A stretch of DNA of 64,000 nt from Antedon mediterranea (Eukaryota > Animalia > Echinodermata). Under the pieces are notes generated by a model, which did no database searches, had not been told where the DNA came from, and worked only from the letters and a program-made list of their open reading frames with translations. The stretch lies in assembly GCF_964355755.1 (NCBI RefSeq), contig NC_092675.1, positions 27,066,912 through 27,130,911 of the forward strand, written 5' to 3'. Below, in pieces: positions 15,001-61,045 of the stretch (its first letter is position 1; every line of letters starts with the position of its first letter). Position numbers and translations under genes: made by a program.

Positions 15001-18000
15001 GATTACTATCGCTATTTTTTGCCCATTATTGTATCATTTTAAAATTTGTTTGTCTATATAAAAGTATAAAAATTAATGTGATAAGTGATTTGTTTATTTA
15101 TAACACATTTATCTAATCTTATTTTTATTTTTATTATAAAATATTTGTATCTTTTAATTGGCAATAAATTAATAAACTAGTTACTATTGTAATTATTAAT
15201 TTTACTACAACATTAATTCTACTATAAAATTGTTTTTTTTTTTTATAAAAAGCAATTTGATTTTATAATTTAAAAAAAAAACATTGTAGAATAAAATTAA
15301 TACTTAGGGATTTGGCCTACTAGTATAATTAATACTAATATCAGTTTATTCATTTATTTCTGTAATTCCATAAATAATAAAATATAATTACGGCTTGATA
15401 TGCAGATGTCTTAACCATTAGACCACTGTGGCTTTCATATTTGTAAACATTGCATTATTAGGCCTACATTCCTGACTGTTTTTATTAATAACCTTATTGC
15501 TCTTAATCAGTATCATCAATAATGGAACAAATATGTTAATGAGTATAATAAAGATGATATAAAAAAAACATTAAAAAAAAAATTATATATATAGGCCCTA
15601 TAATAATTTTGTTTATGTTTTTTGTATATCATCTGTATTATGCTAATATTAACATATTTTAAAAAGTCACACTATAATCCTATATTGTGGTGACACAATG
15701 TTTCAACCTGTATCATGCGTTTCTCCTTCCGGATCTTGGTATTTCCACTCTCCATTTTCAGGGTATATCAGGTAGCAATTTTCCACACCTGAACAATCAA
15801 AACCACTATAACACAAACGTATAACATTGTTAGTCTAGCAGCGGTAGACATGTGATGCAGTTTCAACCAATCACGTTCACGCATTTACATAGGCTATGTA
15901 ATACCTAATAATAAAATACAGATTTTAAAACGTGATCGTGATCGTATAAATAAAGCTACTATTCTCTGTTCCATTCCCGGAAACGGAAGACGGCGCCGTG
16001 AAACGAAAAACATGGTTGCTCGCTAATAATGTCCTCAGTCCTTTTCTATTATATATAACTAACATACACATGTAGTAAACTATTATTAAATATTAATAAT
16101 TACGCAAATATTTGATTTGATTTTACTTTATTCAGCTATCAGAGTTACATATATAAAACAAGCGATAATTAAGTTAAAGATAAAAGAATTTAAATTACAA
16201 TACGACATTATGTATTGTAATTTAAATTTGATTGGTTGAATTTAACATGCAATTAGACAAAAATACAATATATAAAGCGTCGTAACCAATTATTTAAAAA
16301 AAGTGAAAATAAAAACAAAGTAACGTGTAGCACAATTAAAACTAGCAAGCAAGAATTAGCCCTTAGTGTCAAAGAAACGTATTTCCATTTGGATCCTGAA
16401 TCATGCCCAACACTATTTTATAATATTGCGTTCCTGCTTAGTTGCGTTTTATTTATGTTGTTTCCGTTTTTTATTTTTTTTACTACTAATATTTCATTAA
16501 ATCTTCAAGTATGAGAGCTACTTACTTACATAATACATACAGATATAGTATAGTAATTTGCATTGGATTTTAAGTAAGGTTTTTTAATTACATCGGCTAC
16601 TATCTATTATAGGCCTATTTTAATGAAAATCTAAAAAGTCACAGAAATTATCAAATGGCGACCTTTATGAGTTAAATCAAGTTTGCTTTAAACTAACTAA
16701 CTTTGGTAGGTTTTGTAGATCACCAAATTACGTAAATAACTAGTTAAAATGTAAGCCAATTATCAAAATGGTTATGAACGAGTTAAAAAGGTTTTATGAA
16801 ACAGAAAAATTTATTTATCATCAGAATTTTGAGGACAGTATTTTTAATAGAAAATGGATAAAATTAGAAGAATTTATAAATCAAATATGAAATGGTTAGA
16901 GAGTAGAATAATTTTTATGAACCTTTATTTAATTTGTTAGATGGATATCTTTGTTGTTTTTGTTTGTTGCTTTTAATTTTAATTTTTTATTTGATTATGT
17001 TTTTCCTTTGTAATGTATTATATGATGAAATAAAAAAAAAATTAAAAAAAAATAAAAAATTACGTAATAACTAGCGTGAAAAGCCTGGCCCCTATAGAGG
17101 GCGTAAATAAAATTAATGTGTAGGCCTAAATAATAATAATACATAATCTGTACATTGTATAGATGATTATTATTTATAATTTAATAAAAATATATGTATA
17201 AGTGCATGGGATTATGTGCGGAAAATGAGTGCGACCATGAATCCATCACTACTAATAATAGTTTCTTTCCAGGATCTATTAGAGCCTTAAATATGATGTA
17301 GACTTTTTTTTGTAATGTTCTTGTTTTTTGAGTTCGTGTTGTGTCCGTTGGATATTGTGCTCCGCCAACAGAGCAAACAGAATTTCTATGTTTTTCCTAA
17401 AACATATGATAATAAATGATACTTTACTTTACTTTACTGTAAAGCGTGAGATCAAACTTAATGTAGACCTAATATATTGTTCTGTTATTTCGGTAAATAA
17501 TCCGTGCTGTGAATTTAACAGATTGGGCATATGAATGTCTTTTGAATTGAAGTGAATTGAACACATTTTTGAACATTTGTTTTATTTAGATATTTAAATA
17601 ATATTTATATTTATTATGGTATCAAATAATTCGATTATGTCTGATCACCATCGCTATTTACTAGGTCAGTACTTTTTTAAACATTTGTCTATTAAATTAT
17701 ACCAATTAATATTTTACTAATAACACTGTCCCAAACATTATCATAATTTTATTATAATTAATATATGAAACAATATTTTGATAATAGAATAAGATTAATA
17801 ATAAACTAAAACATTTAATATAACCATTAATAGTAATATATTTAATAATTAAAAAGATAAAAATATGTTATACGTTCCTCACTGTTTTTTTACTGATGCG
17901 CTTAATAATTATTAAGATCAATGATGGAACAATAATTATGTTAAAATAATAATAATTATAATTATAAGATCAATGTTCTACATGTCTATTGGTGCTACCA

Positions 18001-18231
18001 CAACAGTAAATTCCGGTGTATTTGAAGTATATAGTTAGAGGTTATAGGCCTAGGCCTATGTGATATAAAACAATAGTAGTGGTGCATACCTGTAGGCCTA
18101 AGGAATCACATAATAAAGTGTTACTTTACTTACTTTGGACATGATGGTGCAGCCTCTGTCATTTTCCATTTTAACATGCATAGGCCTATTACTATTGAAA
18201 CACATTTTAGCCATTGTATAACCCTATGCAT
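1..18231 (-). CDS. CTLD-like type I membrane receptor, paralogue A (3' partial; tail exon runs off window start)
   Basis: Exons: 18134-18231 (MHRVIQWLKCVSIVIGLCMLKWKMTEAAPSCP, signal), 15708-15805 (GFDCSGVENCYLIYPENGEWKYQDP), 14472-14810 (CTLD: HCYKF..SCIDAQRECEVIGGNITVVNS..IICEST), 4221-4490 (S/T stalk, TM LVAAICVPLVVIILIVLIAFFLI, RRKRKKR), probable tail-exon acceptor at 9-11. All GT-AG, phases 2,1,1,1. Bases ~30-160 resemble the intron next to F's tail exon (40725-40845). Confidence 0.8.
1379..1709. mobile_element. PIF/Harbinger-like MITE nested in the 3.3 kb element (second copy ~11970-12337)
   Basis: Imperfect terminal inverted repeats AGGCCCAATTACACTATGACGATAACGA / TCGTTATTGTCCTAGTGTATGGGCCT with TAA/TTA ends; internal inverted CAATCAAATGACGTCATGAT / ATCATGACGTCATTTGATTG. 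Confidence 0.55.
2781..3063. repeat. 56-58 bp minisatellite, ~5 units (2 more units at ~2150-2245; duplicated at ~13405-13690)
   Basis: Unit AAAATGTAAAATTAAGACTGGAAAATTGGGCTTATCAACAAATAAATACTTTCGTTC; GGCT anchor at 2797, 2853, 2909, 2967, 3024. Confidence 0.9.
3087..3243. mobile_element. Short palindromic MITE (Harbinger-like); other copies ~13711-13873 and ~21721-21858
   Basis: AGCTCTGTCTATACTATCAAACT ... AGTTGGGACAGTGTAGACACAGAACT; internal inverted TGATGTGCCCA / TGGGCACATCA. Confidence 0.55.
4626..4975 (-). mobile_element. 3' fragment of an L2-type LINE
   Basis: On the minus strand: GCGCATTGAGGC...GCGCTATATAAGTCCC followed by an (ATT)n tail, resembling L2 3' ends. Confidence 0.5.
5818..7643 (+). 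pseudogene. LINE ORF1 remnant: RNase H1 N-terminal (Caulimovirus VI-like) domain + coiled coil + SGNH/GDSL esterase
   Basis: VYAVAVGKQPGIYLSWLECQANTDGYHGALFQSF; coiled-coil-like 6240-6600; LIIGDAMIK, VHVGTNN, GFIDN, SDGVHLSPRG; broken by stops and frameshifts. Confidence 0.75.
7568..10500 (+). pseudogene. LINE ORF2 remnant: APE endonuclease + reverse transcriptase
   Basis: LLNARSL, SVSETW, GDFNIH, CLDLIIT; KPWYTDEI; YRPVSNL, HSTETALL, LDLSAAFDTVDH, VPQGSVLGP, YADDTQIY (~9656); HAFVSSRLDMCNSLL, GDRAFTVTAPRLWNALP; several frameshifts. Confidence 0.92.
11095..14420 (+). mobile_element. Helentron-type non-autonomous element, copy 2
   Basis: Same termini and content as 498-3797, with small indels (e.g. 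~35 bp extra at ~12074-12108); ends ~50 bp from the CTLD exon donor of A. Confidence 0.65.
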
Positions 18232-19461: not shown

Positions 19462-22400
19462 TTATTTGTTACGTTGAAGGCAGTCATAGGTAGAATCTTC
19501 TGGTGACGACATTGTGCTATTTATCGGTATGTCTACGTAAGTGTACATGTTGTCTGTTTGCGATGGAGTATCTGTCTTCAACTTTCCATATTCGTTTTTC
19601 TGAGCTTCTTCATTGGCTGTACTATAAACGTCATCATGTTTTTCATCAATATGTGTACCTATTGTCGACTGCATGTTGGTAGAATCATCATTAGTTCCTG
19701 TTGTGTTTTCATATGGTACGTCTTGGATATGCCCCTCCTTATCCGATTTCACTTCAGCAGCATTTATACAGTTGTAGAGTTCATCACCATTCGAAAGGCC
19801 TTCTGTATTTGCATACGATACGTCACCAATATCTGTTTTGGTACCAGGCGTCATATCCGAGGCATTTAGTGTATCGTAGGTGTCACTGAAATCTTGGTCA
19901 ATACGTTTCTTTTTATTTGGTAAGGCATACAAACCTACCGCCACGTTGTTTGGTTTTGCTGCTGGGGATGACGGTGACATGGCTGCGTCATTTGAAAGTT
20001 CTTCTGTATTTACATACGATACGTCACCAGTAACGTCTGTTTTGGTATCAGGCGTCATATCCGAGGCATTTAGTGTATCGTAGGTGTCACTGAAATCTTG
20101 GTCAATGCGTTCCTTTTTATTTGGTAAGGCATACAAACCTACCGCCACGTTGTTTGCTTTTGCTGCTGATGATGACGGTGACATAGCTGCGTACTTGCAA
20201 GGTGTTTGGGGGTTTGTTGTGTCTGTGTATCGAACAGGATCACTCAGTGTCTCTGCTGGTGCAGCTATCTCTGCATAATCATCAGAGTGTGCCGGAACGT
20301 ATATGTCATTAGAATGTGAATTGCCTATATTAATACAAGGATTGAAATATTCGACAAAAAATTAAAATCTTAGATGATCATATCTTCGTGACATAAAAAT
20401 TTGGCAAAGGAATTTGGAATAGGATTAAAATCAAATAATTGACCATTATATATGTTGAAATGAAAAAGGCATAATGCATTCGAAGGTTCGAAAGGGTTCC
20501 ATCGATTTACGGCAAGTAGCTATTTTTAGTATTAATCTCTACGTACCTTTACCAATACCATGTTTAGTGTCTGAACTCATTCGCCGCTTTTTCTTTTTAC
20601 GTCGAAAGAAAAATAAAACAATGAGTAAAATCATGATTATAACAACCAACGGTACACAAATCACAGCAACTACACCAGCACTTGACTTGTTTTCAGATAT
20701 ATTCGGTTTGGTATCAGATATATTTGGTTTGGTAGTTTGTAACGGCGCCGAGCATATTTCAGTTTTATCTATAGAGAAATTTCTAACATTTATAAAATAA
20801 TTTATAATATATTTTGGTAGGTGTACCCAAGTAATGTGTCAACATGTTTATACTCACCAGTAGATTCACAGATAATGGCGTTTACCATGTCAGTTGTTGA
20901 ACAGTCCTTGTTTTCGCTTGTTATGATATTATTGTTTTCTTCTCCATCATACACATCAACTATTACGCACCCTGTCACGAGGTTCTTCTTCTGTATGTCT
21001 GATTCTACATGAACATTAAATCTACTACTAGACCCTTGTTCAAGAAAACGTAATGCGATGTATGTTAATTGGTTGTATTCCTTAACGCTATTTATGACTT
21101 TAATATTTCCACCAACCATTTCTTCACATTCCCGTTGAGCATCAATACACGATCTGTTTTCATTGCTCACTTGTATATATGCATAGCAGTTAGGGTCGCT
21201 GTATAATGTGTATTCTGCAAACAAAAAGAACAGATAGTAGGCCTTTGGCAACAGTGAATAATAACAATATAATATTTATAACGTGAAGAATTAATTTATG
21301 AACATCCTTAGATCAAGTATTTATTTCTTATGATTTATTAAGATAAACATTTATATTTGTTACACTTTTAATTGAAATACTATTATATTTTGCAAATTTT
21401 AAATTGTTATGCTTTTTTTCTATGTTTCCACTCCCATCTGGATTTGTGTACATCCATCGTCCATTTTCAACGTAATTATATAACAATTGATTAGCTTATT
21501 TTGACATAATACTCTACATACTTGTTGTTACATGCTTGTTTTTATTCGGCACTTTATATGTCCAATTTCCATCTTCAGGGTAAAACAAGTAACATCCTGC
21601 ACCCGAACAACCAAAACCACTATAAAACACAAAATAGAGAATAAAATGATTTATGGATTAATGTATGACTCACTTATGATTACCACTGTTGTTGTTTCAC
21701 TTTCCACAGTAGGCCTATACGTCTACACTACCAAACTTTAAAAACAAAAAACAATGTGATGTGCCCATATATGCGCATGATGACGTCATATCATTACCGT
21801 ATTTGGGCACATCACACTTTTTTGTCAAACTAGTTTGATAGTGTACAGTATAGCTTTAGAATATAAAGTGAAATTAATCAAATCTTCGTTTGGTCTGTTA
21901 TGGTCTATTAGGAGGGACAACAATGTTTTCATTCATGTACGATTTCACATTATGTATCACATCACAACAATCATCAATACTGTTTATCTACAAATTAGAC
22001 AATTAGACGCATATATTTTTTAGTCAAATGAAACAGGATATTAACGATTATTCTCAGAATTGTATTGATACATTCACAGTCGGATTGCAGTGTTTTACTA
22101 CTTGACATATAATTTACAATTGTCTGTCCATATTAATAATAATAATAATAATAACAATAATAACACTAATAATAATAATAATAAGATTTTTATAGCGCAC
22201 ATACCCCTCCAGAGTGCTCAAGGCGCATATTCCCAGAATTTTATTTTTACATTCATTCATAGGCCTTCAATATTCTCAAGCTCTGTCAAAATATGCATCT
22301 ATCGCCATCACGATGTTTACTTACATTGGCAGGTGGACATAGTAGGATTGAACTAAAACTGTTATCGTAAGAGTCTAATCCTCGGAGAACAACCTTTTCA

Positions 22401-23222
22401 GGAAGTCCATGTTTCTAATGCAATCTGTAGTTTGATCGAATTGATCGTTGCATTGCCTATGTCTTGCACACAGACGTATTAACAGTTTTGGCCGACATGA
22501 ATAAAGACTTTACATATTTAGATCAAACGTTAACAGAGTTAACCCGAGTGTAAACAAAGTTTAATTACGAATGTGCGTTTTTGTTTAGTACATTAATTGA
22601 TGGCTTTTTACCATTTTTAATTTTCTTACCCATGATACCAAAAGCAATAATTTAAATTGAAGAATTCTATAATTCTTTGAAATGTAAATTGATCTTATCT
22701 GAATAATAATATTACATTACAATGTACGTAAACATTTCCTAACTTTGTTATAGGTCCACATCATCTTTTTAAATTATTACGTATACAATACATACATTTT
22801 TTGTTATGTCCAATAAAATATATACATTTTTGCAAAACAAAATACTATTAAAATATACATTTGATTATAATAAAATAGCCATATTGACCAAATAACAAGA
22901 GGATTTTTACGAAGCGAGATCTACGAAATGAACTTGTGTATTCTCATTATCTTTGATGCTGTATGTTTCCACCTCTTACGGTTTTCGTAACAATACAAAT
23001 CAATGTACGTGAATACATTCAGTTTTCTACCCTGACTATGCTTATCTTAGAAGTATAGAACAACCAGTTACAGAAAAGGCAAGTAACAATTTATTAAAAT
23101 ACTTACTCAGGACACGGTACAGTCCCTGTCGATTCCTTTAACAGGCATATTACTAAAATAAGAGACTTGTAACTCCCCACTATAAGTGAGGCATATTTCA
23201 GCCATTGTATAGGCCTGTACAT
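19462..23222 (-). CDS. CTLD-like receptor paralogue B, long multi-tyrosine tail (~551 aa)
   Basis: Exons 23107-23222 (MYRPIQWLKYASL..VPCP), 21522-21619, 20858-21214 (CTLD), 20547-20768 (TM GVVAVICVPLVVIIMILLIVLFFF RRKKKKRR), 19462-20324 (YAEI, YALP x2, YDTL x2, YVNT, YANT, YENT, YGKL, YTYV, STYDCL). Frame is open across all GT-AG junctions. Confidence 0.88.
22134..22228 (-). mobile_element. Severely 5'-truncated L2 tail, same family as the 5000-10831 LINE
   Basis: Reverse complement of GCGCCTTGAGCACTCTGGAGGGGTATGTGCGCTATAAAAATC plus (TTA)n; matches 10765-10831. Confidence 0.75.
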
Positions 23223-29478: not shown

Positions 29479-32400
29479 CTAAAGTGCCATATTGCGCTGA
29501 AGCTTGTCATAGGCATTTTCTTCCACAAGATTCAATGGAAGATCTGTGTCTACGTAAGCGTACATTCCCTCTGATGGTACCTTCTCAGGCGTATTCAGCT
29601 TTCCATACTCGTTTTGTTCGCATACTGCGATATCTCCTTTCCTATCACCATTATTCTTTTCACTATGATTGTTTATAGTTGAGTACGGCAAGTCATATTC
29701 ACCATCAGATTTTCCATTGTTCCCATCAGGCTCTAAGTTCATGTTTTCGGCATTCAGGGTATCGTAAACGTCGCAATCATCTTTAAAACCTTCTGTGTTT
29801 GCGTAAAGTGTTTCGTCAAATCCATTTGGAAAGTCGCCTGCGTTTTTCTCCTGTGCTTCTTGTTGCATGTCTGTGACATTTAGAATATCGTATACTTCGC
29901 CTCCATCTTGGGTGAAAACTGGTGTGTTTACTTGTGATGTTTCAATATCTCTATTCGATTGTAAATGTTGAACGTCCCCGACATCAATGGCATTGTAGAG
30001 TTCGCATTCAACGGAAACTGAACTTCCAAAGTCATCTTCGATATCTTCATTACGATTGTGCCTACTACTTCCACTTTGTGTTGCTGATTGCAAATTGTCT
30101 GAATTATGTTTCATTTCTCGCTCGTCCCTTCGTTTTAATATATCTTTTTGTACATCACTTGTTGCTTGTAGTTGAATTCCAGTATCGTATAGAATATTTT
30201 CAACTACGCATGAATGCTGATTATCTGAATGCTCATGAATTATTGCACCATTAGAGTACGAGACACTTCCTATTGTAAAGATAAAATACTAATTTTAAAA
30301 TAAAATGTTTAATATATTGATAGATACTTTAATATTAGCACTATAACTCAAAAATAAGCCTAAACCACACGACCGGGGATACTCGCGTCATTTGAACTGG
30401 ACTGGCTTTAAATTCGGCTATGTTAGGACAACGACAACTTGTCGCGACAAAAAGAGCTCTTTAGAGACCAATTTCATTATGATGGCCAAATGTGGCGTAA
30501 TTCATGGCTATATTCTGTACAAAAAATCAGGTCGCGGGGGTATCATCATGAATTCACTAATTAGATGATGTCTGTCCAGCAGCATGGTACGGGTAAACCA
30601 ATAGTGTACTATGAAAGCAATACTTAACAACCAGCTTATTTAATAATAAACAAAGTAATTTGATAAAACATTTTTTAACAATAAATTGTGTTATAAGGTA
30701 CCACGTTGGTAGGAATACAGTATCATCTATTTGAAGTGTCTTACATAGAATATGTGATGTTCAATCTGATCAAAGTGGGATTAGTTTAAAATAAAATATG
30801 TAAAAACCCTTAATCATAAATTGCTGTAATAAATTGTCTTTAGAATAGGCAACTCGTTTGGAAATTCGATGGACTTTTGGTGTTTAAAAAATAGATAAAT
30901 TACCAGAATTCACATACCTTCATGTTTACTAAGTTGTTTGTTTTTTCTGTATCGGATGAAACAGCACATGAACGTCACAATGACTACAAAAACTACACAA
31001 AAAAGTAAAGGAATTCCGACTGGAACCAGCAAATTAGGATTAGTATTTTGATTATCACCATCTATATACGTAACCTGCGAATGATCTAAAGTAGTCTGTC
31101 GTGTGACATCAATTGGATAGGTAATATATGCTTTAGAAGGTACTTTTGACGTCGACATCGGGTCTGATGAAGAAGTAGACATCAATGATATCATCGATAC
31201 AGACGTCACTATCAGGTCTGATGGAGTAGTAGTTACCAACGATGCCAACTGCGAATTCGATGTATCAGTTGTTGACACTAGACAAATCCCACGATCTACA
31301 ACTGCATTCATTAAAATAAAAAAACGAGGTGTCCTGTCATTAAGTTCACCTCACAAAAATCTAGGACATGTTCCATAACAGTGGATAACGAAAGATCACG
31401 GCTATCATGATATTTTGTATTTTTCTCCATCTGTTTAAAATTATGGGTGAGATAATTTTGTGTCTAGAAGTATCCAGAACCATGTATGGTTCACAATACA
31501 ATGTTTTAAGACATATTAGGCCTCTTATTCAAACCCAAGAGATATGATTAAAATCAAATTAGAACACTTACGATGCAGATGGTGACAACGAAAACAATAA
31601 TGATACAAAAAGGTACGGTTTTTGTTTTTTTTTGTTTACTTTAGTATTTATAACATTGATATTTTAAAATGGCGGTTATAATCAAAAGCAATAACTTACC
31701 AGAAGACTCGCAAACAATGGTATCTACATTTTCTTCTGTGAAGCATTCCTTGTTTTCAATGTATATATCGTTCCAATTCAAAATTCCGTCATCGACTACA
31801 ATCTTTGCACATCCAACATCTACGTTATTCTTTGGAGAAACCTCGACATAGACGTTGAAAGTACTTTTTGATCCAAATGTTAGAATATGGAGAACGTTGT
31901 TTACCAGATGCTTGTACTCATCTTCGCTATTTATTACAGTCAAGTTGCCACCAATCTGTTCACATTCATCTTTGGTATCAACACACGATTCTTCTCTTTG
32001 TGTAGTTCTTATAAATGTATAGCAGCTGGAATTGCTGTACGCATTTTCATCTACAATTTAAAAAAACTCCGGTGTTGAACAAATGTGAGTAAATTTTATT
32101 AGATAGGAGGAGATGGCGGATGATAGAGATATAGATATTTATTTTTCTCCGTGTTATATTGACACTGTTGATTCGTCTATTTGTTTTTTAATATTTTTAT
32201 ATAGTTTATTTTATATCATTGTTGTTACTTTGGGAGTACGGAACCTGAACTCTTGTTATAGTGATTAGGTTCACTTTTAGGTTCCTGCCTACTCCCTTAG
32301 TTTCTGTGTTTTGTTTGTTTGTAACTGGTTTTTGGCAATAAATAATAATAATAATAATAATAAGCTATCTCTAGGCAATCACACTGTTTTGTTTATTTAA

Positions 32401-33940
32401 TTAATTTTTCAAGTTTTAATCTAGTTTTTGACTGGAACATTTAATCTGTATATGGTTTACTACTGTTTTGTCATATATCTCATTTCCTTCCTTAATAATA
32501 TGACTCGTGGCTGTTTGCACTTCGTATATATTTATTAAAAAAACATGTAATATTGACTTTAATTTACCTGCATCGTGCGTGTCTTCTTCTGGATCTTGGT
32601 ATTTCCAATCTCCATCTTCTGGGTATATCAGGTAGCAATCGGAACCCACACAACCAAATCCACTACAAAACATTAAGACATAATAATAATATTTTGTTGT
32701 AAAAGAACGTCACCTTATTTTAGTTTATATCACAATCCCATGGAGAAATTACTCTGTACGTATAAAACAAATATATGTTTAATACAATATATAAAAATAA
32801 ATAAAACATAAATTGATAGGCATATCAATCACGAATCGGATGTCTAGAAAAGTTCATCAAAATTATCAGACTCCTCCATGATGATATAACAGTTTCAGTC
32901 TTGGTAAATGGTGAATCATTTGAAAACTTCGAAATTAAGAAAGAAGGAAACAAGGATGTGCTCCAGCCTCTTTTCAAATTTTTTTCAGCGGTACTCCTTC
33001 TTGTTAACCAGATGCTATAGAATTCATTGACAACTCTTCTACCTAGGCCCTGAATGCCATGAAGAAGATGACCACCTTAACAGTAAAAGAGCTACAACAT
33101 GCAGATGATAGTCGGGAATACTGAAGACCAACAGCTGCAGGGCAATGAATTATTTCAACTAACATACTCTGATTTTGGACTGAAGCTCAACACCAACAAA
33201 CCGAGATCAAGTGTCAACGGAAACCTGGATTGGATCCAGATGAACACCAACATGCCAGCATCACAATTGATGGACAAACCTTGAATAATGCTGAACATTT
33301 CACGTATCTTGGCAGCTGCCTCTCATCTAAACAGACATGGATGATAAAATACAGAAACGACTGAATGCCGCAACCTGGCATTTTAGGATTCGTTGACATT
33401 CCCACTAGATGATTGGTCAAATCACTTACGTTGCGTTACGTCCTTGCGTTGCGTCGCTAGTGGGAACCAAGCTTTAGTGGTTAGGCCTAATGAAGTTTGT
33501 TACGTCAATTAAACTGTTACATTAGTGGTAGATTTTTGTTATATTAGTGGTTAATGTTACATTAGTGGTTGATTTTTGTTACGTTAGTGGTTAATGTTAC
33601 ATTAGTGGTTGATTGTTACGTTAGTAGGTGATACAGGGCCTCAGGCCTCTGCGTTACGTACGTCACTGGCCAAGGACAAAAGAGTCTTGAAAACAGGGTG
33701 TATGAGATTGTGACGAAGTTTGAACAAAATAGAACGGAACATCGAGATGATTTACAAGAGAAGCCTCGTCAAAACTCAAGCACAACTGAGAGCAAACAGA
33801 TGAATACCTTGCCCTATATCCGTACATGATCATAAAGCATAACCAGCTAAATATACTACACCAACATACGGAGGACATTCTGCCCCTGTGATGATAAGAA
33901 TATGAAATCCTAGGGTTAATATACTGAACACCTCCTGCAT
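29479..33940 (-). CDS. CTLD-like receptor paralogue D, long multi-tyrosine tail (~563 aa)
   Basis: Exons 33870-33940 (MQEVFSILTLGFHILIITGAECP), 32568-32662, 31700-32050, 30918-31301 (TM LLVPVGIPLLFCVVFVVIVTFMCCFI), 29479-30269 (YNAI, YDIL, YANT, YDTL, YDLPYSTI, YGKL, YAYV, YDKL). Frame is open. Confidence 0.88.
32833..33390 (+). mobile_element. Degenerate RTE-clade LINE reverse-transcriptase fragment
   Basis: Fragments IGC.EKFIKIIRLLHDD, KQGC, LQHADD, FGLKLNT, HFTYLGS, scattered across frames. Confidence 0.6.
33516..33627. repeat. Short tandem repeat (TTACATTAGTGGTT... units of 17-22 bp)
   Basis: About six recurrences of TTA(C/T)(A/G)TTAGT(G/A)GT. Confidence 0.75.
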
Positions 33941-34828: not shown

Positions 34829-37800
34829 TTAGATGACGTCCGTGTAGTAGCTACTTGTATTTTTAGAACCCTGCTGAACGTTTGCCGGTACGACAGTATC
34901 ATCGTACAATTGAACGGCAGTTGGCCTACCACGGTGACTAAGCTGGTACAATTCATTCCGATGTGTATCTTCGACGATTAGTTGACTATCCGTCTGAGAA
35001 TCTGCGAAGATGATCAGAATTGTTCTTAATAAAAAAAAACACAAATTAACTATATTTTGGATAAGGTCTTTCGAATTATATAGATACGTAGGTCACAGGT
35101 GTATAAATAGGAATGAGGTTTTGCAAATGAATTCTAATTTCAAAATAAACAGTTATTATTAAGGAAGTAATATTTCTTACCTCTATTATTCATAATTTTC
35201 GGCTGATTCATCTTATGTCGAACGAAAAAAACACCAATGATTATGATAATGATTATAACAGCAGACGACACACTCATAGCAACCACTAAATTTGATTGTG
35301 ATTTCATAACTAGCGGTTGTGTTGATGACATCATTGTTGTTGATAGTCTGGTGTGAGCTGTTAGAGACACTGGACATATTCCAGGATTTAAATCTAAACA
35401 GAATTAAACATTCTATAAATTTAGAACTCACAGAATAATTCATCTGATTAATTATAAAAACATAACAAATGATAGTTAGAAAAATGTTTTAAACATTAAA
35501 ATACAAAAATGATCTTCTCACTATGTTGACAGTTCATTTTGAAGCATTCGGCAAAATTTGGCATATTGACACAAGAATACCTTTTCACAAAACGCATACA
35601 AAAGTGTGTCTATCGGAATAGAGCACGTATTTTGTTTTTAGTTGGAAGGTATTTTTTTTATTAATTTTATTTATAGGCCTAGGTATTTTAAATGTTTAGA
35701 TACCAATATGAGTAAATAATAAATGATAAGAAACAGGTAATTCCAAAATAATATAAAATAAAACATACATAGAAGGTTATTGAATCTTGGTCTAATTTAG
35801 TATTTCAAGAATCTAATCAAGATTTTAAAAATATTCATAACATATAGAAAATGTCCAATGCATTTAGTACTTTTATTGGTGCCACCTTTTGTTAATTTTC
35901 AGAAATAATTCAATAAAATTAATGATGAATTATTATTTTCGGGGCAAAACAGAACTATTCTATTATCCACGTGAAAATATTAATAATTAGTAAAAGACTG
36001 TGATCGACTTACAGGTAGATTCGCACATAATAGTGTCTACCAAACGAGTTGTTGAACAATTGACATTCTGAATTGATGAACTATCAAATATCAGAGTTCC
36101 ATCGTGAACACCGAGTATTGCGCACCCCTCGTTGATATCCTTCAGTAGATTTGATTGTGCGTGAACATGGAATGTTCTTCTTGTCCCAACGCTAGTAATA
36201 TGTACAATATTGTTTACTAATTGATCGTATTCATCATTGGTATTTATAGTAGTGATGTTGCCGCCAGTCTTTTCACATTCAAGTTGTGCGTCGGTACATG
36301 ACATTTGTTCACTCTCTTGCAGTTCCATAAATTGGTAGCAGTTGGGGGCGTTGTATACGTTGAACCCTACAAAGAAGGTAGGCCTTGATAAATGTTTTAA
36401 TCCTATTTTATACAATCTTTGCGGGATAATTAATCTACATAAGGCAGTGTATGCGTTTGACCATCTCCATGCATTGATCTATAAATTACTGTTTTACCCA
36501 TGTTATTTGTTTGAAGTTGGTTTTTTTTCCGTGCATTCATTATTAGGTTATATGCATGATATGCATATAACCTCTTGATTCTGTCAAAATCTTTATTTAT
36601 TTATTTATTTATTAGGTTATATGCATGATATGCATATAACCTCTTGATTCTGTCAAAATCTTTATTTATTTATTTATTTTTTATTTATTTATTTATTTAT
36701 TCTTTCCTTAGCACTATTTTGTCCGTGCATTATCTTGGCATCAGTTTAATCTAGCTAAGTCAAGTTTTCAGAGTATATTCCTCATGGCCAGGAATCGATG
36801 TGGTTATATTTTCATGATGCGTAATCAAAAATTACGCGGTCTACGCGCGATTTTACGAAATCACGTTTGTAATCATATCTTCACAAGCATGAATCACAAT
36901 TAAACAAAATTTGGTACTCATAAATTTCAGGTCATATTTCATCATATGGCAATAAAATTACGTGCGTAGCGCATATAACGCTTTCGTACGCGCGCTTAAA
37001 ATGTTCAAAATTGTCAAAATTTATTTTCGATGAAATTAGAGTACGTTTCAGGCAATTTTAAGCGTTTAAAAAATTGCCATGAGTGCGCAGATTTTTGCAC
37101 GCGCACTGCGCGTTAAACGTTAATGCGCACTCTTTTTGCCCGATTTCTGTTTTACAATCTTTCTTTAATAATATCATCATATTTGATTCAGGTTTCAACT
37201 CGAAATTGCGTTATACGAGCACGTCAAAAGTGACTGGCTACGCACGTATAAGTTAACAAAATGGTAAAAATATGCTAAATTTTAAAATTAATATATATCG
37301 TCAGAATGCAGGGGAACACCTATTTTTTATTTCATTTTCTTGAAGTGTATGTATTATATGTATGATTTATTATCAAATAAAGAGAACAAAAGTTGATTAA
37401 GTCATCATTAATAGCATATTACATTTAAAAAAAATAATTTCGACAATCCAACAAATTATGACATTTTCTTAGGCCAAAATAACAAACTTATCATTAACTT
37501 TCTTCCTTCAAAAATTCATATATTAAAGTTAAAAGTATGTAGTTTGACAGTGCATCATTTGTATACATTTTAAAGATGTCATCATAGTAAAAAATTATAA
37601 TTCATTTCGGTATGTAATAATCTATTTGCATCAAAGTGGTTACTGCATAGTAAATACACGGAGGAATTTTTCTACAACTTTTAGTCAGTTGTGGTCTGTG
37701 CTCGTGTCTATGGCTTTCAAGGTACCGAGATCGAGTCTCACCTTGGGAAACGAAATAAGATTTTTTTTTTATTATCCGTATTGTTTGTTCAAATTTATTT

Positions 37801-39277
37801 CTTAGTGTATAGATTATACACATGATTTATAATGAAATCTAGATAAAAATTAACTTATGTCTTTATTATTATGTAACAACAAATGTGGTTTATGACATTA
37901 TACGCATATGGATCTTTGATCGGATTGTGATACCGGCTATGGTGTTCGCGTTAGCAAGGTCCTATCATATATTATAAATAATTAAAGATTCTGAGAAAAT
38001 CAATCAATTAATATATCTTTTAAAAATCAATTATCTTTATTTAAATCAATGCATATAACCTATAATTCGTCATAGTGACGAATTAAATCTAGTTTCATTT
38101 GAAAATATAATTATCGTAAAATGCTCTTGTAAAATAATTATTAAATTACATTATGATTATTACTTAATTATATGTATATATTTATTATGATTAGGCCTAT
38201 TGTTTTTATTCATATACCGTACACACTATATTAGAAGAATGGAATTCACACTCTTTTCAACATTACTGCCTTTTTTTTGCACTGTCATGGACATATATAA
38301 ACATTTAATCTCATACCTGTTCTATCAATTTTTCCATCTGATTTTTTGTATTTCCAATTTCCATTTTCTGGGTATATCAGGTAGCAATTCGGACCTGAAC
38401 ACTCAAAACCACTAATAAAATCAAAAGATTAACACTATGTAATGCTAGCTTGTTTCGGGACTTTCGATACCACGTATGCTTTCCTGCGGCAGTTTAATAA
38501 TACATGACAAAATCCCCTAAACAATTCCCGAAATTATTTTATGTAGTTTAAGTTTGGTTTGTTATAAGATTACTGAAAAATAAAATCAACATGAATACTA
38601 TTTATTTTGTTATATTCATACTATATTTCAAAAGTTTAAGTTATTTTATATTTGTTTCCCTTTTTACATAATATCTAGGCCTACAGTATAATAAGAGTTT
38701 GTGCGTTTGTTCCTTATATTAGACATTGGATATCAAAATGACTGGAATTGTACTGGGAAGGTTTAAACTACGCCATCTTAGATCCAATATGGTGGCCAAA
38801 AAAGCATCTGAAATCACCTCCAAATATTGTTTTCCCGGTTTCGGATCGTATATTATTTGAGTAAAAGACAACGCGATTCTCGGTGGTGTATTTAGATTTC
38901 CCCAGTATCAAAACATTCCATAATAATTACAGCATCACATGTGTTTCACATGTATCACCTCGTAGACCATAACCTAAGATATGATACACATGCTAAATTA
39001 CTGAAAACTATTTTCGTATGTAAAGATGACATCACCGAGAATTGAGTGAAAAGCCTGCTTTACGATACACATTCCAACCGTTGCCAACGGTATCCTTCCA
39101 ACAACCAGCAAAACGTTTTTGTTTCTTAGATGATTTACTTTACGAAAATTCAGTACCCCACCAGTACCCACTAAAAACAAATAATAGAAAAATGTCTACT
39201 TACGGAGGACACTGTGCTCCAATTAACACAAGTTGGTAAGAAAAAGCTAAGACAATGTTAATCGACTGCATTATCAT
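34829..39277 (-). CDS. CTLD-like receptor paralogue E, short ITIM-type tail (~302 aa)
   Basis: Exons 39204-39277 (MIMQSINIVLAFSYQLVLIGAQCP), 38317-38411, 36013-36366, 35181-35393 (TM LVVAMSVSSAVIIIIIIIGVFFV), 34829-35001 (ELYQL, QLYDD, SYYTDV). Confidence 0.88.
36540..38094 (+). mobile_element. Helentron-associated non-autonomous element (HINE) in intron 2 of E
   Basis: 5' AGGTTATATGCA-TGATA-TGCATATAACCT hairpin (present twice, ~69 bp apart), (TTTA)n microsatellite, 3' subTIR TGCATATAACCT, stem-loop AATTCGTCA-TAG-TGACGAATT, end CTAGTTT. Confidence 0.75.
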
Positions 39278-40370: not shown

Positions 40371-43300
40371 TTAATTATTAATGAGTTCAATGTATGAAAT
40401 ATTTGGATCATCAACACATTGCTCAGATTTTGCCGGAACGATAATGTCATGGTACAATGTACTCTGGTCAGTTGATGGAACAGCAGCACCATGCTTCTGC
40501 GAAATTAGCTGGTATAATTCATTCTGGTGTGTATCTTGGTTAAGGGATTTACTGTCAGTCTTCTTAGAGTTTACCGAAGGAACGACAGTATCATGGTACA
40601 ATGTACTCTGGTCAATTGATGGAACAGCAGCACCATGCTTCTGCGAAATTAGCTGGTATAATTCATTCTGGTGTGTATCTTGGTTAAGGGATTTACTGTC
40701 AACCTCAGAATCTACAAAGATAAATCAACATGTGGCCAATTCGGACCACCTTTGTGCGATTAGCTTACATATCGCTGTATCTAGATTTCTCATCATTATG
40801 AATATTCGGTGATACAGCATCACATGTGTTTCACATGTATTGCCTATATTATCCTCCTATCAACCTAATTTTAAATGATCAGACACCACGTCAGTAAGCA
40901 TGCTGTATTACGGTACCAGATATTCCTATGATACTGGGCAAAGAGTGTCGTATGTGGAGATACAGCACTGGTTATCGGGTAATAATTGTGGATTGGACGT
41001 TAAGCTGAAGGTCAATGTGTTAAACATACACTTCAATTCATGTCTTTCAAAACAAAATGGGGAAGACAGCTGGATTGCAGAAAAGCGTTGACATAACCTA
41101 TTCAAAAAGAGGCAATAGTGTCAGTGTCAACAGACAACTAGGCCACTACAAGTGCTGTATTTTGTCTCTAAACGTTACGTACCTCTACTATGATTTCTTC
41201 CTGATGTTTTCAACTTGTTTCGTAGAAAGATTAAGGAACACATAACCACAATAGTAATTATAACAGCAGACGACACAGTTATGATATCAACCACTAGACC
41301 ATGACATTTGTCAAGTTCATACCAGGGAGTTGTTTCAAGCAAATTGTTTGGTGTATTCGTAAATGAATTCGCGTTGCTAACAGTGGCACTAGAAGTCGTT
41401 GTTAGATCCAATCGTGACGTTGTCGTTTCTGTCGTTAATTGGCATATTCCAGGAGTTAACTCTATAATAAAGTTTCGATATTTCAATAATGAGTGATAAG
41501 TAAACATCCAATGTATAAGGTAATAATCTGACAATAGTAAGAAATTGATAATAATCATATGCATTACTAACAAGTTATGATTTATAGGCCAGAGTATGAT
41601 ATTCTCATCAAACGCCATCAATATGTTTTATTTTAATCAATATTGGTATGTTAAATTTAATAGACAGTATGCCTACATACATTGTTTCCTTTTATATATT
41701 ATTTTCATTGACGTAATAATAGCAGCAACAATCCATATTGAGCCTACTCGGTAAATATAATGGATACATTAGCTATTTTCACTTGGTCATAAAAAGTTAA
41801 AGTTATTAGTTTGGTATGCACGTTGTCATACTCACCAGTAGATTCACAGATAATATTGTTTATCCTATCAGTTGTTGAGCAGTTCATGTTTTCACTATTT
41901 ACGGTGTTCGACAAAGTTCCATCATCCACATCGATTATTGCGCATCCCTTCTTTAGCTTTTTCTGGCGTAGTTCTGATTCTACATGGACATTAAACTTAC
42001 TACGAGACCTGACACTAAGAACTTGTAAAATGTTCTCTTTTAATTGATTGTATTCCTCAACGCTATTTATGACAGTGATGTTTCCGCCAACCATTTCACA
42101 TTCACGTTGGGCATCAATACACGATCTTCGTTTATTGCTCACTTTTATAAATGTATAGCAGTTGGGGTGGCTGTATACATGGTCATCTACCAAAGAAAAA
42201 GAGATACTTTATTGTCTGCCAAAAAATTACACTTACAATTAGGCCTACCTAATTAAATAACATTTAAAAGACGTAGCTATTTAATAATACAATTATAATT
42301 GTAATTATTTTAACCGATGTATTAATATTTAAACATCTCAGATGTTTCGGAAGCTTTACATATTGTTAACGGATTTGGCGAATTTTTACGGATTCGACAC
42401 ATTTTTACGGATTTGACGCATTTTTACGGATTTGACGCATTTTGTATTTTCATCACCACGAGATGCATGGTCATCTTTGTTCTGTGACATTTTTTTCAAT
42501 ATTATGTTATTGTTTTCTTTTCATGTAGTGTGTTTGTAATTCAAATTATTCTTCAAAATAGTTTATTTTAGCAATTAGAGTACATTAATTATTTTATAAA
42601 TGAAAACCAATGCGGAACAATAGTTTACAATGACAGTAATAATTATAATAAAGCTTAATATGATGACTGCAAATATAGCACCTGCATCATGCGTATTTCC
42701 GTTTGGATCTTGGTATTTCCATCTTCCATTTTCAGGATAAATCAGGTAGCAATTATTCACACCTGAACAATCAAAACTACTATAAAACAAAAATAAATAA
42801 ATTAAAAAGATTTAATTTAGAACTTCGAGAATGGCCAGTTGTTTCATTTACCTTTGTAAATACAAACACATAGGTCTATAATTATAAATCTGTCTGACGT
42901 AGTTTGTTTATATTATTAGAAGGAACTTGACCAATTGGATACTGTACGTTCATAAACTTTAAAAAACAGAATCATATCAATTAAGTGCTAACAAATTGTT
43001 GCTTTCAATGATTTCTGTTTATAGATTCGTGTTCGTGTGTAGATTCTCGACACTAACTTTTTTTAAATTAGGTTCAACAATCCAAAGTTATCTTATATCA
43101 AGTGTTGTCCATGCTCGGATTCTTTTACCAAACACCGAACGGGCCTAAAATAAAGTTCTTGCAGTAGTAACTTGGTTGTAGCGTCTCTTTTCCATTATTA
43201 TTCTGTTTTCAGTTTTACTTTTATGCTATGATTTGGTATCGATAGCTGTGTTTCGTTTATCCGGTCAATTTCAGTTTTTTAATATATTTTTGAAGATATG

Positions 43301-43778
43301 TCATACACGTTGACCTTTATATTCTTTACATAGGTATACAAATTGTATCGATACACAAACGTAATCATAAAAATGTCAGAAAGAAAATCAACCATTCATT
43401 TTACATTTGAGAATATTAAATGATAGTATGAAGACTTGTTGTTGTCGTACAGAATGTAGACCTATTTACATACATAATACTGTCAATAATGTGCCCTGAT
43501 AGAAAGCTCAATAAACAACGGTGATGTGTTCGTTCCATCGTGTCAACTAGTAGACCTAGACAATACCTATACACATAACTTTTTATTTTTTATTCGAGGG
43601 TTATTCCAAACGAATATTATCTTTTCTAAAATCAACACTATTTCGATCCGCCCATTTGTGTGGGCAAAAGCGTAGCTAATGGCATGATTGATAATACTTA
43701 CGGAGGACATGTTGCACCACTACATCTTGTTAGCATGCATATTACTGAGACACATTTCAGCCATTGTAAGCTATGCAT
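40371..43778 (-). CDS. CTLD-like receptor paralogue F, ITIM/ITSM tail (~381 aa)
   Basis: Exons 43702-43778 (MHSLQWLKCVSVICMLTRCSGATCP), 42682-42779, 41836-42186, 41183-41461, 40371-40711 (ELYQLI x2, TLYHDT/TLYHDI, terminal ISYIEL). Confidence 0.88.
42370..42445. repeat. 18-bp minisatellite (TTTTACGGATTTGACGCA-like) x4
   Basis: Direct tandem units visible in intron 2 of F. Confidence 0.75.
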
Positions 43779-43967
43779 GTTGCTGCTCCCACAACTGTTG
43801 TTATTGATAGAATAACACGGAAATACAACTGTACTTATTATCATAGCACAAACTGAAAGTATTTTCATTTCCTGCGTACGACACTACAACTTTAAACTGA
43901 TACATTTTTTAACAGCCAGTATAACTTATTTTTCTAAAGTCCTTTACGATTTCTTTTTGGTATTTCC

Positions 43968-44380
43968 TTAAGCTTGATTCCCACTAGAGACGCAACGCAA
44001 GGACGTATGCGAAACGCAAGCAAGTTGACCAATGACAACGACAGTTCGAATACTCCATCGGCGGTGATTTGTCAAACCATTTACGTTGCGTTTACGTCCT
44101 TGCGTTGCGCGTCCTAGTAAAAGCTTGGTTCCAACTAGGACGTAACGCAAGAACGTAAACGCAACGCAAGAGTGTTGACCAATGACAAGCGATAGTTCGA
44201 ATACTCCATCGGTGGTGATGTGTCAATCGAAGTTATAGACAGTTAGCAATCACAAGCGAATAAGCCATCGCTTGTGATTGGTCAATTCACTTGCGTTGCG
44301 TTACGTCCTTGCGTTGCGTCGCTAGTGGGAACCACGATTTTAACGTTGCGTTTACGTCCTTGCGTCGCGCGTCCTAGTAA
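43968..44380. mobile_element. Nested or rearranged palindromic MITEs (Harbinger-like TIR AGCTTGGTTCCCACTAG); partial copies ~33399-33475 and ~61120-61250
   Basis: AAGCTTG(A/G)TTCC(C/A)ACTAG...ACGCAACGCAAG starts, inverted ends CTTGCGTTGCGTCGCTAGTGGGAACCA, TTA/TAA context. Confidence 0.6.
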
Positions 44381-51484: not shown

Positions 51485-51932
51485 TGTCACGAACTCCTCT
51501 TACGTATGTTTCCGAGCGGTTGAAAATACTTTAGGAACTCCCTTGTGACATAAAAGTATACACACAAAATCCACAAAGTTGTAAAATAACTCAAAAACAA
51601 AGCTTTAATTTCAATCAACTTCAACTTTTAACAATCCAGTAAGCACTTTAAACAACAGCTTCACAATGACTTTACAATATAACATCCAACCTCTAATCCA
51701 ACAACCTTACAATAGTTTACATCCCTTTATATACAAGATGCTCCCATCCTTCTAGATCATTCTTTATACTTCTCATTATTACATGATTACAGTTTCTATT
51801 AATAGCACTTCTGGAATGTTCTTGATTGTTCTTATTAATTATACATGGTTTATTAAATCAAAACATCTTATTCTAGAATGTTCATGTAAATACTATGTTA
51901 CTCTATATGTTAGGGAATGGTAATTTATTACA
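51485..51932 (-). repeat. 3' LTR
   Basis: Direct repeat of 57066-57513; adjacent to the polypurine tract. Confidence 0.97.
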
Positions 51933-52159
51933 CTCCCCCCTCTTTCTGAGCTCAAAACTCTTTCTTGGAGTTTTGAGGGGCAAGTATACACGGACGTGGC
52001 AAAATATAACATTTTCGTCCTATAAACCTGTTTAATATATGTATATAAATTCAAACTACATTACGTGAAAACCAAATTCTCATTACAAACAAAATGTAAG
52101 AAACAAGTAACTTATAAACATTAAAACCTATTTTGTCTATTTGTAAAGTAACCCTTGCT

Positions 52160-56734: not shown

Positions 56735-57065
56735 ATTTTAAATCTGGATGAGGGTCTTGTTACTAGTTAATCGTAGTTACCGAGACGTTCACAAGTCTAC
56801 TGTTCCAAATAAATAATGTACTGTTCTTAAAACAATGTTTGTGTACTTACGATTAAACAAAACGTAGCACTGCGGCTTCCGTAAAATATCACAGTATCGT
56901 AAGTACCGCTTTCACAAAATATCAATAAAGTACAGTTGATCCTAAACAGCCACCAATCTATGGCAAAATACAGTAGATCAAACTGCTACCACAAAATATC
57001 ACAACCGTAGATAAATACACAGTTAAGTCGAACAGTAGATCGAAATAACCGCTGCCACCAAATTA

Positions 57066-57899: not shown

Positions 57900-58273
57900 A
57901 ACAATATTACGCCATGTTATATCAAACTTTTTCTACAAAACAGTTCGAGATCAAAAACTTAAATACAATCCATATGGGTTTAATCTCATTACATGAAAAT
58001 AACAAATATTTTTCATTTTTAATTTCATTACATCTTTCACATATGTCATATATAGAAAGATTCCAAATTTGTAGCTTACTTTTACACGCAAGAATGTGCG
58101 ATGTAGTAGTTTGAAATTGAATTGCGCAACTTTTGTGATATGTTGCATAGAAAACACCTTGTTCAAAAAGTGTAATTTTGAAATTCTATCTCCCATTTTC
58201 TTTGTGCTATAGGAGTTGATATTACATTTTCCACAAATAAATTATAAAGTAGTTTTGCATTAAGTAAAAGCAA
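57900..58273 (-). mobile_element. Degenerate L1/Tx1-type LINE ORF2 C-terminal fragment
   Basis: KVAQFNFKLLHR, then in another frame ENEKYLLFSCNEIKPIW, resembling the L1 zf-RVT C-terminal region. Confidence 0.45.
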
Positions 58274-61045
58274 AGCAAATTGTTTGGTGAATTCGTAAAT
58301 GAATTCGCGTTGCTAACAGTGGTACTAACATGTGTTGTTAGATCTAATCGTGCCGTTGTTAGATCCAATCGTGGCGTTGTTAGATCCAATCGTGACGTTG
58401 TTAGATCCAATCGTGACGTTGTCATTTCTGTCGTCAATTGGCATATTCCAGGAGTTAACTCTATAATAAAGTTTAGATATTTCAATAATGAGTGATAAGT
58501 CATTCACTTCTTGCTTGGTCGGACAAGTAAACATTTAATGTAAGGTAATAATCTGACAATAGTTGGAAATTGATAATAATCATATGCATTACTACCCAAA
58601 CAAGTTAAGATTTTATAAGCCAGAGTATGATATTCTCATTAAACGCCATCAATATGTTTTATTTTAATCAATCGTGGTATGTTCAGTTTTTTTTAATAGA
58701 CAGTAGGCCTACATATATTGTTTCCTTTTCTATATTATTTTCATGGACGTAATAATAGCAGCAACAATCCATATTAAGCCTACTCGTTCAATATAATAGA
58801 TGCATTAGCTATTTTCACTTGGTCAGAAAAAGTTAACGTTGTTAGTTGGGTATGCATGTAATAATATTGTAAACACGTTGTTAATACTCACCAGTAGATT
58901 CACAGATAATGGTGTTTATCTTATCAGTTGCTGAACAGTCCATGTTTTCACTATTTACGGTATTTGAAAATGTTCCATCATACACATTGATTATTGCGCA
59001 TCCCTTGTTGAGATTTTTCTGGGGTAGTTCTGATTCTACATGGACATTAATTATACTACGAGAATAGATATGAAGAACATCTAAAACGTTATCTATTAAT
59101 TGATCGTATTCATCAACACTATTTATAACAGTAATGTTCCCGCCAATCATTTCGCATTCCCGTTGAACATCAATACACGATCTTTGTTGATTGCTCACTC
59201 TTTTAAATGTATAGCAGTTAGGGTTGCTGTATACGGTTCTAACTGCAAACAAACACAACATTACACTGACAATTAGGCCTACCGAAACATCAAAATGCAA
59301 TAAGTATCGTTAATAATTAATTTAACCGCTATTTAAACTGTTGTCTTATATTCTCAGACTCATGCCCTTAACAATTTTGGCTATTTGACTCGTTTTAACG
59401 GATTTGACTCGTTTTAACTGATTTGACTCGTTTTAATTGATTTGACTCGTTTTAACTGATTTAACTCGTGTTAACTGATTTGACTCGTGTTAACTGATTT
59501 GACTCGTTTATTCTAATTGTATTATCATCACGTATTACATGTTTGTTTCTGTAACTTTCTCTTTTGTATTGTTTCCCTTTTATGTACTGTGTTTTTAGCA
59601 ATTAAAGTACATTAGTTAATCAATAAATAAAGCTTATCACTGTAGCACCTGTATCTTGCGTTCGTCCTTCTGGATCTTGGATTTTCCATCCTCCATTTTC
59701 AGGGTATATCAGGGAGCAATTATTCACATCTGAACAATCAAAACCACTGTAAAACACAAATAAATAAAATTAATGAATAAGAGATTTAATTTCGAACTTT
59801 GCGAATGGCCCGTTGTTTCGTTTATCTTTATAAATACAAATACATAGGTCTATATAAAATCATGTTGTATCTGTTTTAGAAGAAACTCGACCAATAGAAA
59901 CATTCATAAACTTAAAAAAACAGAATCATATATCATATCAATTAATATTAAGTGCTAACTTTCAGTATTTCGTGTTTAAGTTTCAACAATCCAAAGTTAG
60001 CTTGGTCAAGACAGTGGAAATCGGCAAAGGTTCAGGCCACACTTGCTCCATGGTTCTGGTAGTAGATCAAGATCTCGGATATGGTCCAGTGTACACAAAA
60101 TGCTCACGTGCACTTTAAAGTACCTATATCTTTCGAGACGAGTATAGACCCCCTTTTATGGTTCAAACAGCCATTACTTTAAAAGTAGGCCTTCTTGTAA
60201 TCCGTAATAATCAATTTCTTGATTGAACTTACGACGATGAAGATAAATAACTAATATTACGGAAGTTATTGCAGTAACTTAGTTTTAGCGTTTTTTCCAT
60301 TATTATTATGTTTTCTTTATCTTTAAGAATTACTATTACTGTTATTATGAAAAAATGTCAACGAAGAATTCAACCATTCATTTTATGTTTGAGAATATTA
60401 AATGTTAGTATGAAGACTTGTTGTCGTACAGAATGTAGATCTAGATTTACATACATAATACTGTCAATAATGTGCCCTGATGGAAAGCTCAATAAACACG
60501 GTGATGTTCCATCATGTTAACTAGTAGGTCTATACACACCTACAAACACAATTATATATATGTTTTTATTCGACGGTTATTCTAAACGAATATTATCGTT
60601 TGTAAAATCAACACTATTTCGATCCATCTAGGCCTGTTTGTGTGCGTAAAAGAATAGCCAATGGCCAATGGCCAATGTAAATAGGTTGGGTAATCATCAG
60701 GAATAGTCCTGAACAGGGAGATGAGCGCCCCTGCCCACCGATGAGTTTCGGGATCCCTTTGACCCGGAGGGAGGGTCCCTACCAAGGGTTACAGGTCCCA
60801 GGTTTTTAGTTGTTTTTAAAATTAATTAGTGTTCCATGACCTTCTCATCAAAATTAACGTCTCTCATTGTTGTGCTATGTCAACATAATGTCAATGACGG
60901 CGAAATGTCTCCAATAATGGGTATAGCATGCAAACAAGTAATAAGTAAGTAAGTTTGATAATACTTACGGAGGACATGTTGCACCACTCCATGTTATTAA
61001 CATGCATATTACCGAGACACATTTCAGCCATTGTGAGCTGTGCAT
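58222..61045 (-). CDS. Paralogue H: close relative of F lacking TM and tail (putative secreted CTLD protein, ~254 aa, or pseudogene)
   Basis: Exons 60969-61045 (MHSSQWLKCVSVICMLITWSGATCP), 59649-59746, 58892-59242, 58222-58460 (ELTPGICQL, four TT[SPA]RLDL units, FTNSPNNLL, then foreign CFYLMQNYFIIYLWKM*). Confidence 0.7.
59383..59510. repeat. 19-bp minisatellite (ATTTGACTCGTTTTAACTG) x~6.5
   Basis: Direct tandem units in intron 2 of H. Confidence 0.85.

Follow-up and report, generated by a model that had tools for sequence, protein, structure and literature searches.

Gene F lies on the minus strand of a 64,000-nucleotide stretch of the genome of the crinoid Antedon mediterranea (contig NC_092675.1, positions 27,066,912 to 27,130,911). 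This stretch is called the window here, and coordinates are counted from its first nucleotide. Gene F belongs to a tandem series of related genes, lettered A to H, and is modelled as a putative receptor whose Cys-rich outer part is a predicted CTLD (C-type lectin-like domain) of the compact type. Its parts are as follows.

43778-40371, minus strand: gene F, five exons with GT-AG at every intron; 381 amino acids, predicted type I membrane protein
43702..43778, minus strand: exon 1 of the splice model, predicted signal peptide and the first Cys, C24 (C0-like), followed by a phase-2 intron
42682..42779, minus strand: exon 2, N-terminal module with C30 and C36, a predicted three-strand insert; seven exon-2 copies were aligned
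41836..42186, minus strand: exon 3, predicted compact CTLD core with C68, C81, C88, C140, C161 and C172; long loop deleted
41183..41461, minus strand: exon 4, stalk Cys182, Ser/Thr-rich stalk and predicted transmembrane helix; identical to residues 87-179 of the protein P0002
40371..40711, minus strand: exon 5, encoding the cytoplasmic tail, which has an internal repeat of 144 bp, five Tyr and, near the C terminus, one motif matching the immunoreceptor tyrosine-based inhibitory motif (ITIM) consensus

Gene F and its crinoid relatives

Along the splice model, a signal-like start leads through a Cys-rich ectodomain and a Ser/Thr-rich stalk to a hydrophobic helix and a tail. The mature ectodomain carries Cys at positions 24, 30, 36, 68, 81, 88, 140, 161, 172 and 182. 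All ten recur in each of the seven modelled window genes (A to F and H), as an earlier note on this DNA had stated, and the exon phases are common to all; the extra Cys that it placed in the stalk exon is Cys182. The end of exon 1 falls at a position matched in six paralogs. The note had exon 3 restart at an NCY motif, which is present, but the exon opens about eight residues earlier.

Exons 3 to 5 are identical to an uncharacterised A. mediterranea protein (P0002, 292 amino acids). This NCBI model of gene F lacks exons 1 and 2; its start is an internal Met of helix 1, within exon 3. The N-terminal module is present in the paralog models P0004, P0005, P0006 and P0011 but not in P0002. In contigs of run X5, which are presumed to derive from RNA, the joint between exons 2 and 3 (42682 to 42186) is found as CT..AC, at 90-93% likeness, so its source could be an allele or a closely related paralog. 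For paralog D, these contigs show each of the four introns as a CT..AC joint at the predicted site, and the exon 4-5 joint of paralog E is also seen. Models P0003, P0007 and P0016 look mis-started like P0002, and P0001 and P0014 look like fusions of adjoining genes. Directly upstream of gene F is a high-copy repeat with inverted arms (43960-44340), where contig depth is very high in both runs.

Word-indexed searches returned 10 and 15 proteins, and a full HMMER scan across 1.84 billion representatives produced 70 hits with E<=0.001. A further homolog search, confined to proteins of 1352-3860 residues, returned none. The family as used here consists of 32 full-domain cluster representatives, some from partial gene models. 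All come from two crinoids, 13 from A. mediterranea and 19 from Anneissia japonica, and all are annotated as uncharacterised; this crinoid-only distribution refers to the databases searched, and few crinoid genomes are public. Most of the 45 other hits align over the CY-helix 1-helix 2 stretch alone, and three of the five that were looked up are nematode or fish proteins with multiple CTLDs. A literature search at the level of listings and abstract openings found no description of the family, which may still appear in supplementary gene tables accompanying crinoid genome papers. Lineage-specific CTLD families are to be expected, because invertebrate and vertebrate families barely overlap according to the excerpts used of one survey (PMC514892).

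A tree was built from 31 ectodomains, omitting P0001, P0014, P0021, P0002, P0007 and three models for which window genes were substituted. It contains two one-to-one Antedon/Anneissia pairs (100/100 and 100/98) plus species-specific clades; the family is therefore older than the split between the two species and kept expanding. Gene F falls in a seven-member Antedon clade (95/95). Window ectodomains share 42-75% pairwise identity, and their ratios of nonsynonymous to synonymous substitution (dN/dS) range from 0.28 to 1.31, exceeding 1 in two of 21 pairs. The crinoid family is marked by lineage-specific tandem expansion and fast divergence.

Fold, long loop and N-terminal module

The outer domain is predicted to have a C-type lectin fold. 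The AlphaFold and Foldseek check that the earlier note had proposed bears this out: paralog models reach a predicted local distance difference test (pLDDT) score above 90, and both Foldseek and VIA assign them to this fold, with sugar-binding carbohydrate-recognition domains (CRDs) in the top Foldseek rows. The prediction contains the elements of the CTLD superfamily, namely two helices, beta1/beta5 and the beta2-beta3-beta4 sheets. The Cys called C1 (helix 1) and C4 (beta5) are found in every row spanning those positions; the bond itself is presumed. The beta1-alpha1-alpha2 region matches canonical long-form CTLDs with an HH probability of 97.8%. Despite the predicted fold, the family lies below the gathering cutoff of Pfam PF00059 (22.6 bits). 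Exon 3 of gene F is unmatched, the best paralog scores 17.3 bits, and three of 30 members reach E<=0.1, the best at 0.01. A single-sequence search of the PDB gave weak matches confined to the N-terminal half, the best being DC-SIGN (E 0.059). A match to the SET-domain structure 4ldg (E 0.004) is short and missing from the listed structural rows, and it was treated as chance.

The distance from the beta2 motif to C2 is 4-16 residues (median 12) in 29 members. In 29 canonical domains, chosen by regular expression among the 45 hits outside the family, it is 27-46 (median 36). Between C2 and C3 the family has the longer gap, 20 residues compared to 14. In a paralog model, a short beta2-beta3 loop joins strands E107-114 and E127-135; in gene F this loop is rich in Lys and Arg. 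The beta3-beta4 hairpin is lengthened and variable across the family. The absence of EPN and QPD that the earlier note had reported extends to all 30 aligned ectodomains, W[ILV]G is found in none of them, and W-N-D occurs in three, each time out of register with C3. Cys occupies the helix-1 Trp position in 25 of 30. Other motifs proposed from the same reading are less uniform: DAQ is exact in F and in four of the seven genes overall, with DTQ in C, DTK in D and DVQ in H, and the WIGL substitute F[NH]V[HY][VA] fits five of seven, A having FNAHH and H having INVHV. By sequence alignment, the crinoid domain is a compact CTLD in which the long loop has been deleted and Ca2+/sugar site 2 lost. Link domains occur also in invertebrate chordates. 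Compact CTLDs are characterised by a very short beta2-beta3 loop (PMC6468738), and the reviews, in the portions drawn on here, list Link modules and bacterial intimin/invasin and no others (PMC6468738, PMC9630629).

The claim that the domain carries no sugar or Ca2+ motifs holds for site 2 but not for structural Ca2+ site 4, whose residues are largely kept. Site 4 involves a Ser and a Glu in the alpha1-alpha2 loop and at the start of alpha2, a Glu at the end of beta5 and a Tyr at the start of beta1 (PMC6468738, in part). At the corresponding positions of this putative site, 27 of 30 members have Asn or Asp, 20 have the Ser, 26 the Glu and 28 the beta5 Glu, and the beta1 Tyr is conserved.

The equivalents of C30, C36, C88 and C172 are invariant in the 25 rows scored, and C140 is nearly so. 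Gene F has both the C2 and the C3 Cys, but C161, the C3 position, is missing in nine of 31 rows, at three or four places on the tree. In every one of these nine the stalk Cys is gone as well, while C140, C81 and C2 remain. This pattern suggests rewired disulfides, with C161-C182 and C81-C140 replacing the C2-C3 bond. Against such rewiring, three rows lose the stalk Cys without loss of C161, and two lose C68 together with C81.

The N-terminal module of exons 1 and 2 was described earlier as resembling the start of a long-form CTLD, and this resemblance stands. Aligned to 34 canonical long-form starts, it matches over 24 columns, from C-P to Trp, with an HH probability of 58.6% and a score of 20.2, which was not reached in 50 full shuffles (maximum 12.95) or in 100 shuffles that fixed the columns imposed by the regular expression (maximum 18.0). 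Its first and third Cys have a C0-C0'-like spacing, of 10-13 in 18 of 20 members; among the 34 canonical starts, the value is 10 in 29. On account of the match and the spacing, a CTLD start is the likely origin of the module, via exon duplication or as the remnant of an upstream domain. A literal duplication of the family's own exon-3 start, as the earlier note had it, fares poorly (12 columns, probability 1.6%, score 13.2, the best of 20 shuffles reaching 12.7).

The insert of about 30 residues proposed in that note is also supported. A paralog model predicts module strands at E23-29, E32-36 and E42-49, and roughly 30 residues of the module have no counterpart in the long-form CTLDs compared. 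Inclusion of the module lengthens structural alignments by about 9-14 residues, to the first residues of 4uxm, 1jzn, 3als, 2bpd and 4iop, in a comparison that used models of two different paralogs and aligned residue ranges only. Because these alignments reach the first residues of long-form CTLDs, the start of the module is placed at the N/C pole. A position atop the domain, in place of the long loop, was rejected, as the start lines up with the C0 region of that pole. The module does not match the domain's C-terminal half (probability 0.5%). A search for a GYF/WW-like origin gave a single GYF match (E 0.17) among 13 ectodomains and no usable Atlas match.

Topology, ligands and function

In 27 of the 30 members a transmembrane helix is predicted to follow the domain, and the N-terminal exon is signal-like. 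The tails of 27 proteins hold 274 Tyr in 4742 residues. YxxL/I/V motifs number 91 (40+-5.6 expected) and Y[DE] motifs 75 (43+-5.8 expected); neither count is reached in 1000 shuffles, although the tails are related and repetitive and hence not independent. The ITIM consensus is not enriched in the tails (11 compared to 9.3 expected), and the tail of gene F ends in one. All seven window ectodomains are acidic (net charge -4 to -23), and upper-lobe charge differs between members, from -7 to +4. In-frame repeats have lengthened the tail exons of F (40435-40701, 144 bp) and B (19788-20192, 204 bp) and duplicate tyrosine motifs, and the tail of P0027 is repeated in like manner.

The earlier note suggested that the domain likely binds protein ligands as natural killer (NK)-type CTLDs do. 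In architecture the family differs from NK receptors, which are type II: it is predicted to be type I, with tails rich in YxxL/I/V and the long loop deleted. Group V NK-type CTLDs are type II proteins with the CTLD at the C terminus, unlike the family, which has a transmembrane helix after the domain and a C-terminal tail. Group V members such as NKp65, KLRG1, CLEC-2 and dectin-1 also retain the long loop region (PMC7618208, in part). The loop deletion and the tyrosine-tailed type I topology are points beyond those made in that note. Canonical long-form CTLDs (PLA2R/mannose receptor, BDCA-2, DC-SIGN) are the best structural matches and share the C1 and C4 positions and the CP start, but the family differs in having no WIGL or EPN/QPD, no long loop, a longer beta3-beta4 hairpin and the insert of about 30 residues.

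In architecture, the family is closer to CD44 and LYVE-1 than to NK receptors. These have type I topology, as is predicted for the crinoid proteins. In Link modules, C2 follows C1 by about 23 residues, whereas in the family it follows beta2, 52 residues after C1. The extended Link module of CD44/LYVE-1 is likewise a compact CTLD without the long loop, with added beta-strands and an added disulfide at the N/C pole and a Ser/Thr-rich tract after the domain (PMC6468738, PMC11926218, both in part). The acidic ectodomain, the ten Cys and the many tail Tyr motifs are the family's own. Pfam scans of eight exons and 13 ectodomains gave no row for Xlink (PF00193) at E<=10, and Link modules, invasin and intimin are absent among the best 50 VIA rows listed. 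The resemblance to CD44/LYVE-1 is likely convergent. Invasin and intimin, whose ligands are proteins, have another architecture and no sequence similarity that could be found. They too have the long loop missing or replaced (PMC6468738).

The best explanation, to which we assign a probability of roughly 0.55, is that these crinoid proteins are putative compact-CTLD receptors which likely bind protein-type ligands without Ca2+-sugar chemistry and likely signal through tail phosphotyrosine. It draws on the exon structure, the ten Cys, the missing site-2 motifs, the short loop, the Tyr-motif enrichment, the tandem expansion and the fast divergence, together with the predicted fold, module position and transmembrane helix. 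The stalk, probably O-glycosylated, would lift the compact domain from the membrane. The module, perhaps what is left of a second CTLD start, would stiffen the N/C pole, and the extra disulfides would brace the base. Presumably C161 bonds to C182 of the stalk and C140 to C81 of the helix, replacing a C2-C3 bond. The exposed beta2-beta3-beta4 sheet and its long variable beta3-beta4 hairpin would then offer a face for a protein-type ligand. Ligand clustering might lead to Src-type phosphorylation of tail tyrosines and recruitment of SH2 proteins, in the service of self/non-self or pathogen recognition.

A bolder version is put forward tentatively. Crinoids may have evolved a compact CTLD independently by deleting the loop, grafting on the remnant of a CTLD start and rewiring the disulfides, and may now use it as a tyrosine-signalling self/non-self repertoire that combines CD44-like architecture with NK-like use.

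The earlier description of the domain as non-carbohydrate-binding was overstated, since glycans are bound by dectin-1 and Link modules even though these lack site 2 (PMC7618208, PMC6468738, both in part). The family might bind a polysaccharide (glycosaminoglycan, beta-glucan or mucus glycan) without Ca2+ by convergence on CD44/LYVE-1 or dectin-1. We regard this as unlikely, even though the compact CTLD, N/C-pole strands and disulfide, and Ser/Thr-rich tract parallel those of CD44/LYVE-1 (PMC6468738, PMC11926218), dectin-1 binds beta-glucan (PMC7618208) and the short loop of gene F is rich in Lys and Arg. The LYVE-1 cleft is basic (PMC11926218), whereas the window ectodomains are acidic with varied upper-lobe charge; Xlink is unmatched; and fast divergence would suit varied ligands more than one conserved polymer.

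Somewhat less probable again is a role outside immunity, in which the proteins have protein ligands and serve in development or in adhesion (cell-cell, matrix, gamete or skeleton-forming tissue). The two deep subfamilies with one-to-one pairs (100/100, 100/98), dN/dS mostly below 1 and the lack of ITIM enrichment would fit such receptors, but lineage-specific tandem expansions, truncated copies and the 42-75% identity among neighbours are seen more typically in receptors for recognition. It is very improbable that the family is a classical Ca2+-dependent C-type lectin whose motifs have degenerated. The CTLD fold, W-N-D in three of 30 members and sugar-binding CRDs in the top Foldseek rows would fit, but the EPN/QPD-bearing loop is missing, neither motif occurs in any of 30 members and W-N-D is out of register with C3.

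As a crinoid family without the long loop, it would represent a separate animal origin of the compact CTLD form and show how the fold regains stability once the loop is lost. It also supplies candidate recognition receptors in crinoids, the earliest-branching living class of echinoderms. Counts of lectin and immune genes in crinoids likely miss the family, because its members lie below the Pfam threshold and all 32 are annotated 'uncharacterized'. Divergent lineage-specific CTLD arrays are common among invertebrates, which limits this significance, as does the putative nature of the ligand.

Neighbouring copies in the window

The other copies in the window are the following.

58273..61045, minus strand: paralog H, ectodomain 75% identical; similarity stops in exon 4 before any transmembrane helix
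45362..46076, minus strand: paralog fragment G, Pro/Thr-rich stalk, transmembrane segment and Tyr tail; no CTLD exon found adjoining
34832..39204, minus strand: paralog E, from the end of exon 1 to the final tail match, with approximate limits on both sides
29482..33940, minus strand: paralog D, complete; NCBI model P0011, 563 amino acids
24558..28351, minus strand: paralog C, from exon-1 end to last tail match, the tail match broken near 25255
19465..23107, minus strand: paralog B, from exon-1 end to last tail match
4222..18231, minus strand: paralog A, NCBI model P0006; no final exon located in the window

The tail of paralog C aligns to that of D in two pieces, with the break at about 25255, and its NCBI model ends early, which suggests truncation. 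Between paralog H and fragment G, a long terminal repeat (LTR) retrotransposon is inserted on the minus strand (51485-57513), which we take from the motifs of its open reading frame to be of Ty3/Gypsy type. Its Gag-Pol reading frame of 1525 amino acids (56737-52160) is uninterrupted and its 448-bp terminal repeats are 99.6% identical, so the insertion is very recent. Paralog H, whose exon 4 loses similarity (58273-58460), and fragment G could be parts of a single gene spanning the retrotransposon, or else a pair of broken copies. Finally, a 3.3-kb segment is present twice at about 98% identity (499-3795 and 11096-14420), with one copy inside paralog A's third intron, which is 10 kb long, and the other after exon 4 of that gene.
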